The notes: a model not told the origin generated them from the letters alone. Positions 38,079-38,147 are shown, counted from the first letter of the stretch. The stretch: DNA of 44,826 bases from a virus (IMGVR_UViG_2718218398_000008); one strand, 5' to 3'. Program-made: numbers and translations.

Positions 38079-38124
38079 AATTGACTCCTTTAGTTTGAAT
38101 TGACTGTTAAGTTGATTGCTTATT

Positions 38125-38137
38125 GTTAAAGAGCGTG
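38125..38137 (-). promoter_or_regulatory. boxA-like element CGCTCTTTAACAA on the early-right transcript between cro and the cII-position gene
   Basis: 13-nt match to the boxA consensus read on minus strand; no convincing boxB hairpin found next to it. Confidence 0.4.
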
Positions 38138-38147
38138 AAATGGAAAT

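Follow-up and report, generated by a model that had tools for sequence, protein, structure and literature searches.

A boxA sequence of nutR descent between cro and ydaT in a lambdoid prophage with no detectable N gene

The early region and its boxA sequence

The window, as we call the whole 44,826-nt stretch of DNA that was analysed, contains a lambdoid prophage related to phages IdasGreatGrand, 4A7 and Perceval. Its segment 37400-40100 was 99.7% identical to Escherichia phage PhiR34_1. The features of the immunity region are listed in Table 1. The gene cro was the first of the early-right transcript, with the promoter pR inferred from reading the sequence, and the intergenic gap extended from its stop codon (TAA, 38148-38150) to the ATG of the next gene (38076-38078). 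Past ydaT, the minus strand encoded a lambda-type O and then a lambda-type P, and the prophage also had a lambda-type Q (25152-25841). The path from pR to Q was approximately 13 kb long and included an inverse-autotransporter gene. On the plus strand, cI was followed by pL with AACAAC-type operators, a leader of approximately 200 nt and the genes kil, gam, bet and exo. A scan of the cro-ydaT gap detected neither an intrinsic terminator nor a promoter. The gap was G-poor and rut-like, with a C/G ratio of about 2-3 over 38200-38100.

Table 1. Coordinates of the boxA and of the surrounding features in the window.
Feature	Position	Strand	Basis or remark
boxA CGCTCTTTAACAA	38123-38135	-	Consensus match; conserved in relatives
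cro-ydaT intergenic region, 69 nt	38079-38147	-	Slot of nutR/putR in relatives
cro, 76 aa, YdaS family	38148-38378	-	Pfam PF15943, E = 4e-17; PHROG 35
ydaT, cII position, 179 aa, YdaT family	37539-38078	-	Pfam PF06254, E = 9e-30; PHROG 163, 'CII-like activator'
cI-type repressor, HTH and S24 peptidase, divergent from cro	38483-39172	+	Pfam
pL leader	39491-39683	+	No boxA, boxB or N ORF; conserved central cassette, 39545-39650
kil, phi80 type, first left-operon gene, lambda N position	39684-39974	+	PHROG 294, E = 1e-38
12-nt deletion scar	38098-38110	-	Comparison with L149, L162, L168 and L175

The classic example of processive antitermination is lambda N acting with its nut sites, and HK022 put is the standard exception. 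To our knowledge, N is missing from many E. coli prophages that also have no right-side put RNA. The initial annotation of the window had reported a boxA between cro and the gene in the cII position, with no N gene on the left, and both observations were borne out. The exact 13-mer CGCTCTTTAACAA was located inside the gap, on the strand transcribed as the cro-ydaT operon, starting 12 nt past the cro stop codon and ending 44 nt ahead of the ydaT ATG. On the early-right transcript, it lies approximately 265 nt from the inferred start at pR. It was the sole match in the whole window, even when up to two mismatches were allowed, and in RNA form the boxA-bearing sequence reads CGCUCUUUAACAA. It was identical at 12 of 13 positions to the E. 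coli rrn boxA, which we take to be TGCTCTTTAACAA. Within it, GCTCTTTAACA (38134-38124, minus strand) was the window's single match, and a perfect one, to GYTCTTTAANA, the consensus that mutagenesis and ChIP had defined for functional BoxA (PMC5725501).

In shuffled windows, the 11-mer consensus was expected 0.19 times per window, so composition is not decisive alone. The 13-mer with up to two mismatches was expected 0.97 times by chance. By arithmetic, the exact 13-mer was expected approximately 0.001 times per window and a sense-strand consensus match within the 69-nt gap approximately 1e-4 times. By themselves, the sequence statistics for the boxA are only moderately strong. Of 5426 complete E. 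coli genomes, at least 1513 carried the cro-intergenic region-ydaT junction of the window (counted at ≥80% coverage), with nearly all copies ≥99% identical.

The other parts of a nut site were absent. The initial annotation had suggested a search for a boxB hairpin within 20 nt of the boxA, and none was found on folding 38060-38170; nor was there any other hairpin after the boxA (MFE -5.6 kcal/mol, z = +0.5 versus shuffles). No N gene was detected in the window by ORF scan, Pfam, PHROGs or tblastn, and the longest plus-strand ORF in the interval between pL and kil encoded 31 aa. The 11 tblastn queries (lambda N, P22 gp24, HK022 Nun and eight N-like ORFs from relatives) recovered 16 N-encoding loci as a positive control, with a sensitivity that a very divergent N could escape. 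The best candidate for the boxA of a nutL in 39440-39760 had 4/11 mismatches, and the left operon contained no boxA with two or fewer mismatches. Among these four features of a nut site (boxA after cro, boxB, N and nutL), the window thus had one. With the three other defining features missing, the site is best not classed as a functional nut site.

A put RNA was not found either. Blastn searches with putL and putR gave no match in the window, and a put covariance model (R1) of limited sensitivity, built on 12 putL/putR sequences with just 9 base pairs, gave chance-level matches only, all outside the early region of the window. No Rfam family reached its gathering score in the window or in relatives L120, L121 and L253, and the matches around the locus at E up to 10 were noise only. 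The window boxA is not an HK022-type put RNA. An rrn-type boxC (UGUGUGGG-like) was absent 3' of the boxA, the following 44 nt containing 5 G and no GU-rich tract. The window boxA had both sequence features expected of a Nus-factor BoxA element, namely a consensus match on the transcribed strand and, as described below, conservation beyond that of its flanks.

The same slot in related phages and the descent of the boxA

Relatives were collected by their cro protein, and the presence of a boxA was no criterion. Behind this family of cro genes, the slot contained a boxA and boxB accompanied by nutL and N, a putR, a boxA and hairpin without N, or nothing. A boxA with a boxB-type hairpin was found in Izhakiella, Erwinia, Buttiauxella, Pantoea, Serratia, Providencia, Xenorhabdus and Photorhabdus. 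These loci, with cro 50-77% identical to that of the window, had a second boxA and hairpin on the left strand, and their first left-operon ORF encoded an arginine-rich motif (e.g. ...GNAKTRRHERRRK... or MNRNQRRMAAYNA...). They are ordinary N/nut phages. In L137-L142 and L144, the slot was occupied by a putR 96-97% identical to HK022 putR, with a putL on the left.

A third arrangement, in L120-L123, L127, L132-L134, L135/136 and L143-L148, consisted of a boxA, a G-poor spacer of approximately 19 nt and the hairpin (C)GGCUGA-NNNN-UCAGCC(G). No boxA with a GCTCTT core on the left strand and no N homologue (tblastn) was detected in this class, with the exception of L121, which had a one-mismatch boxA copy (GCTTTTTAACA) in its pL leader. 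The left-operon partner in L120, L143, L145, L147, L148 and others of this class was an HK639-type putL. A pattern scan of viral contigs recovered 53 further contigs with the boxA-hairpin module, in one copy each. Of these, 51 had no left boxA and two had one, eight carried an HK639-type putL on the left, and none was found to have N or a paired nutL bearing the same hairpin. The module followed several cro alleles and preceded either YdaT-type or lambda-CII-type genes.

Four loci (L149, L162, L168 and L175) had the intergenic sequence of the window together with a hairpin, GACUG-AUUAA-CAGUC, and the hairpin-less form seen in the window was present in 60 of the 66 window-type loci. The slot was empty in Kosakonia, Klebsiella, Enterobacter, HK639, K-12 Rac and the type-B phages (e.g. 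Perceval). The nearest cro homologues outside E. coli, those of Kosakonia, Klebsiella and Enterobacter (79-86% identity), were among the genes without a boxA behind them. The type-B phages had the cII-O-P genes and the pL leader in common with the window, with a different cro and no boxA anywhere in the region. Since these phages share the backbone, the boxA is dispensable for phages of this kind.

The slot also connects the boxA with nutR. In lambda, P22 and phage 21, nutR occupies the same place, 7-24 nt after the cro stop codon on the pR transcript, and has the core CGCTCTTTA in common with the window. P22 nutR reads CGCTCTTTACCAATCTGAA..., and L121, among the relatives of the window, reads CGCTCTTTAACAATCTGGAA...; P22 nutR and relatives L121, L127 and L134 share CGCTCTTTA..AATCTG, an extension that the window does not have (..AATAAG). 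Remnants of 15-22 aa of an N or Nun C-terminus were detected by tblastn in L229 and L127, both N-less. The gap of the window was equal to the hairpin form minus 12 nt (ACTGATTAACAG) between TTAACAG direct repeats; the missing segment comprised the 5' arm and loop of GACUG-AUUAA-CAGUC, and the 3' arm CAGTC was left at 38106-38102. From this comparison, it is well supported that the 12 nt were lost by a slippage deletion, which would have left behind an orphan rrn-like boxA. The window thus represents the hairpin type after a 12-nt deletion, and its boxA therefore derives from nutR. There is good support for regarding the motif as the boxA portion of a nutR-type site, transcribed from pR in a lambdoid prophage that lacks N.

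The initial annotation had offered two readings of the boxA, a remnant of an N-dependent ancestor and an N-independent use of the Nus machinery. As history, the former is correct, because the boxA is homologous to nutR boxA and N remnants occur in relatives; descent from an N-dependent nutR is well supported by these sequence comparisons. The latter received indirect support, through the conservation of the boxA. Lack of conservation in related prophages had been named beforehand as grounds for abandoning the boxA reading, which survives since the boxA was conserved. Over six N-less lineages, the mean pairwise identity was 0.92 in the boxA, 0.29 in the 20 nt upstream and 0.41 in the rest of the gap downstream; in the same lineages, it was 0.62 in the spacer and 0.73 in the hairpin. 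The six lineages carried differing cro alleles and downstream genes, and some used a left put RNA. Changes among the boxA variants (TGCTCTTTAACAA, CGTTCTTTAACAA, CGCTCTTTAAAAA and GGCTCTTTAAGAA) were limited to degenerate positions of the consensus, with the exception of L175, in which a G-to-T change disrupted the boxA. The window-type lineage was nearly clonal (98.6-100% identity), too uniform for the intactness of the boxA there to carry much weight for selection. In the hairpin of the relatives, the stem had one compensatory change (G-C to A-U) and the loops were hypervariable, with 12 loop sequences. Such loops argue against a target for an ARM peptide, and the hairpin is not an N-binding boxB.

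Possible modes of action of the boxA

The window boxA resembles several characterized elements and differs from each of them. Compared with nutR, the window has no boxB (half deleted), no nutL and no N gene, and the hypervariable loops of its N-less relatives contrast with nutR boxB in having no conserved GNRA-like pentaloop. It shares with rrn BoxA the near-identical sequence and, as proposed here, independence from a phage protein and protection from Rho (PMC12360218). Unlike rrn BoxA, which lies in an untranslated rRNA leader, it is situated inside a translated phage operon, with neither a boxC nor an upstream boxB. Single GYTCTTTAANA BoxA elements outside rrn are also known from suhB and from the CRISPR arrays of Salmonella and Vibrio (PMC5725501, PMC7665894), and the suhB element, like that of the window, is within 50 nt of a start codon (PMC5725501). 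The suhB and CRISPR elements were validated by ChIP and genetics, whereas the putative element of the window was recognised by sequence comparison and, unlike them, is clearly of phage nut-site descent. With the put RNAs of HK022 and HK639, it has in common the slot and the independence from N, putR being found behind homologous cro genes, but there is no similarity in sequence or structure. The put RNA binds the zinc-binding domain of the RNA polymerase beta' subunit directly and needs no Nus factors (PMC9378689).

An rrn-type boxA in the slot of nutR and putR leads to a cheap hypothesis, namely that host Nus factors act on it alone. NusB-NusE binds rrn-type BoxA RNA and, with NusA, NusG and SuhB, renders RNA polymerase resistant to Rho; at suhB and CRISPR leaders, BoxA acts alone and without a phage protein (PMC5725501, PMC7665894, PMC12360218). 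Our favoured explanation, to which we assign a probability of roughly 45%, is that the window boxA is a host-only, rrn-like loading site that counteracts Rho. We are much more confident of the identity of the boxA than of its mode of action. Upon firing of pR, the nascent RNA would expose the boxA approximately 265 nt from the transcript start, a distance similar to that of HK022 putR (approximately 270 nt; PMC9378689). NusB-NusE(S10) would then bind the boxA and, together with NusA, NusG and SuhB, form a host-only complex on RNA polymerase, as in rrn and CRISPR leaders. The polymerase so modified would resist Rho across the G-poor cro-ydaT gap and the approximately 13 kb to Q, and neither a phage protein nor a boxB would be required. 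Because sister phages manage without the boxA, its effect is probably an enhancement rather than a requirement.

By analogy with rrn operons and CRISPR leaders, we infer that the boxA may be kept as a stand-alone loading site for NusB/NusE, and its conservation suggests retention for an N-independent use of host Nus factors. A broader proposal is tentative and, in our judgement, rather unlikely as a whole: that the boxA, with or without spacer and hairpin, is a protein-free early antitermination device of N-less lambdoid phages and the right-operon counterpart of putL, loading the rRNA-type Nus complex of the host (NusB/E/A/G/SuhB) onto polymerases that leave pR. The hairpin-less window form, which occurs in more than a quarter of complete E. 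coli genomes, would in that case show boxA alone to be enough. If boxA and hairpin together are the working unit, the window site, with its hairpin half deleted, may be dead.

If the host-only loading site is real, the phage operon would join the short list of non-rRNA BoxA targets (suhB and CRISPR arrays) and would exemplify the simplification of a nut site after the loss of N, with the phage borrowing rrn antitermination without N. As a variant of a known element, the boxA is modestly interesting. A literature search found no paper on a boxA in N-less YdaS/YdaT prophages, a prior mention being possible. Annotation pipelines could flag the element.

The same boxA could instead be an inert relic, a nutR leftover that travels with the cro/immunity module, undecayed and idle without N; we regard this as possible but somewhat doubtful. 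The clear nutR ancestry and the N remnants in L229 and L127 are what a relic would be expected to show, and it fits with decay that the neighbouring hairpin is already half deleted and that the deleted form is dominant (60/66 window-type loci). The boxA is missing from sister phages that share the backbone and from behind the nearest cro homologues, and its intactness in a near-clonal lineage (98.6-100%) weighs little. Idleness is harder to reconcile with 92% identity in the boxA against 29-41% in its flanks over six N-less lineages that differ in cro alleles and downstream genes, or with changes that respect the functional consensus. A pool of N-encoding donors is not visible either, as the 53 module contigs had neither N nor a nutL with the same hairpin. 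The conservation across lineages could in part stem from repeated import of cro-nutR from N-encoding phages, or from survival as a recombination 'linker'; no N-encoding phage with this hairpin was found, and repeated re-import from N phages is therefore not evident. Were the boxA inert, it would represent a clean case of module decay, in which N was lost first, then boxB, with boxA the last to go.

We consider it improbable that the boxA is a negative or attenuating element, acting either, when bound by NusB/E, through a suhB-like block of ydaT translation that promotes Rho termination or as the rut of a tR1-like terminator that meters cII, O and P. The 44 nt from the end of the boxA to the ydaT start codon fall inside the 50-nt limit for suhB-like cases (PMC5725501), and the effect of BoxA on Rho termination can be suppression or, in certain contexts, promotion (PMC12360218). 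The annotated lambda rutA (tR1) overlaps the nutR boxA, and the C/G ratio of 2-3 over 38200-38100 would suit a rut site. However, in the relatives with an intact hairpin, the boxA is 56-68 nt from the start codon, so the distance is not conserved, and a rut site needs no such sequence conservation. An unrecognised phage antiterminator, whether a small RNA-binding protein, an arginine-rich extension of the kil frame or the N of a co-resident prophage, appears very unlikely. Several lambdoid prophages often share one E. coli genome, and the frame upstream of kil remains open over 139 codons in roughly half of the relatives, where it encodes an ARM-like stretch (...RGVRGVKRTRERRCDQL...) with several synonymous substitutions. 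Yet type-B phages have the open 139-codon frame and no boxA or hairpin, and frameshifted variants of the frame exist. The open or closed state of the frame was independent of boxA or hairpin, for which reason the extension was rejected as a hidden N. A protein of this kind would also have to work without a nutL and, in the window, without a hairpin, the loops of the relatives are hypervariable unlike those of boxB, and tblastn with 11 N/Nun proteins was negative.

Little credence, finally, is due to an explanation at the DNA level or to a chance match. In CP-933P, the ydaS-ydaT interval contains three operators bound by YdaT, beside a PRE-like promoter (PMC9986795), and the gap of the window contains direct repeats (AGTCAATT), so the boxA might belong to a leftward pRE-type promoter or to a YdaT operator. 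Against this, the promoter scan of the gap was empty and the published YdaT site (TTGATTN6AATCAA) was absent. The same boxA stands ahead of both YdaT-type and lambda-CII-type genes and thus does not co-vary with the activator. A YdaT operator or pRE as the cause of the conservation was rejected on these grounds, and the suspicion that the motif was part of an unrelated promoter or operator, which had been raised at the outset, gained no support. As to chance, an expectation of 0.19 consensus 11-mers per window is not negligible, but the same motif in the same place behind homologous cro genes of many genera rules it out.

Neighbouring elements in the window and its relatives

The direct repeat AGTCAATT was present on the minus strand in two copies 11 nt apart (38105-38098 and 38086-38079), just upstream of and overlapping the ribosome-binding site of ydaT. 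The repeats could be an operator for a YdaT-type activator or part of a pRE-like promoter. In type-B phages (L002 Perceval, L009 and L036), the cro stop codon was inside a small hairpin (GCCGCCTAAACTGCGGC) and the gap to cII measured 24 nt. Right after the YdaT-type cII of HK639 (L124, 5411-5470), an 'M3-like RNA' is annotated, and copies 92-95% identical to it were found around 4916-4921 in the put-type loci L137, L140-L142 and L144. The window had no counterpart of this RNA and, because its cII overlaps O, no room for one.

Further along the minus strand, right after P in the nin region, the window encoded a 1421-aa inverse autotransporter (31310-35575), an intimin/invasin-type adhesin with IAT_beta, Big_1 and Invasin_D3 domains and three near-identical internal repeats of approximately 100 aa. 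PhiR34_1 has ren-emrE-ybcK at the position of this gene. Between the adhesin gene and ninB-rusA-Q, the plus strand carried, over 27690-30965, an esterase (alpha/beta-hydrolase) gene (27690-28478) and an IS66-family element with three ORFs (28549-30965). As both are in opposite orientation, transcription from pR to Q must run antisense through approximately 3.4 kb. The prophage may be impaired.

The interval from cI to pL (39173-39440, plus strand), in the position of rex, was an insertion hot spot in close relatives (H2-H5), where the cassettes were annotated as GevT/GevA, HipA/HipD, or a transmembrane protein and a 340-aa protein. In the window, this position had only a terminator-like hairpin (39294-39311).

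In some relatives, a boxA-like sequence was found downstream of pL (L121, 1100-1960, minus strand; L122, L123, L253 and L247). L121 had GCTTTTTAACA at this place, and L247 and L253 had an intact TGCTCTTTAACAATATGCA. Beyond the boxA-like sequence came 700-900 nt rich in G, in which neither a convincing ORF nor an Rfam match was present; this part might represent a long leader RNA or an N region in decay.

Within the pL leader of the window, a nearly invariant G-rich cassette (39545-39650, plus strand; ...GGGGAGTGCGAGGGGTGAAACGGACGCGTGAACGTCGGTGTGACCAGCTG...) was located where L120 and HK639 carry putL, and the leader flanks on both sides of it were common to the window and L120/HK639. The cassette showed no homology to put and no Rfam match. 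It was predicted to adopt a closed fold of two hairpins, and covariation analysis gave 0 compensatory pairs at a divergence that was too low. We regard it as a candidate for a different leader RNA element.

In the kil frame of the window (39564-39974, plus strand), a TAG was present at 39657-39659 where the open-frame relatives (about half) have CAG. The extension of the kil frame (RGVRGVKRTRERRCDQL) may provide a longer Kil isoform or may be a by-product of the G-rich leader. In K-12 Rac (L269, 906-1003, minus strand), the leader upstream of kilR has an annotated small RNA, KilS, whose position corresponds to that of the conserved 3' part of the pL leader of the window.
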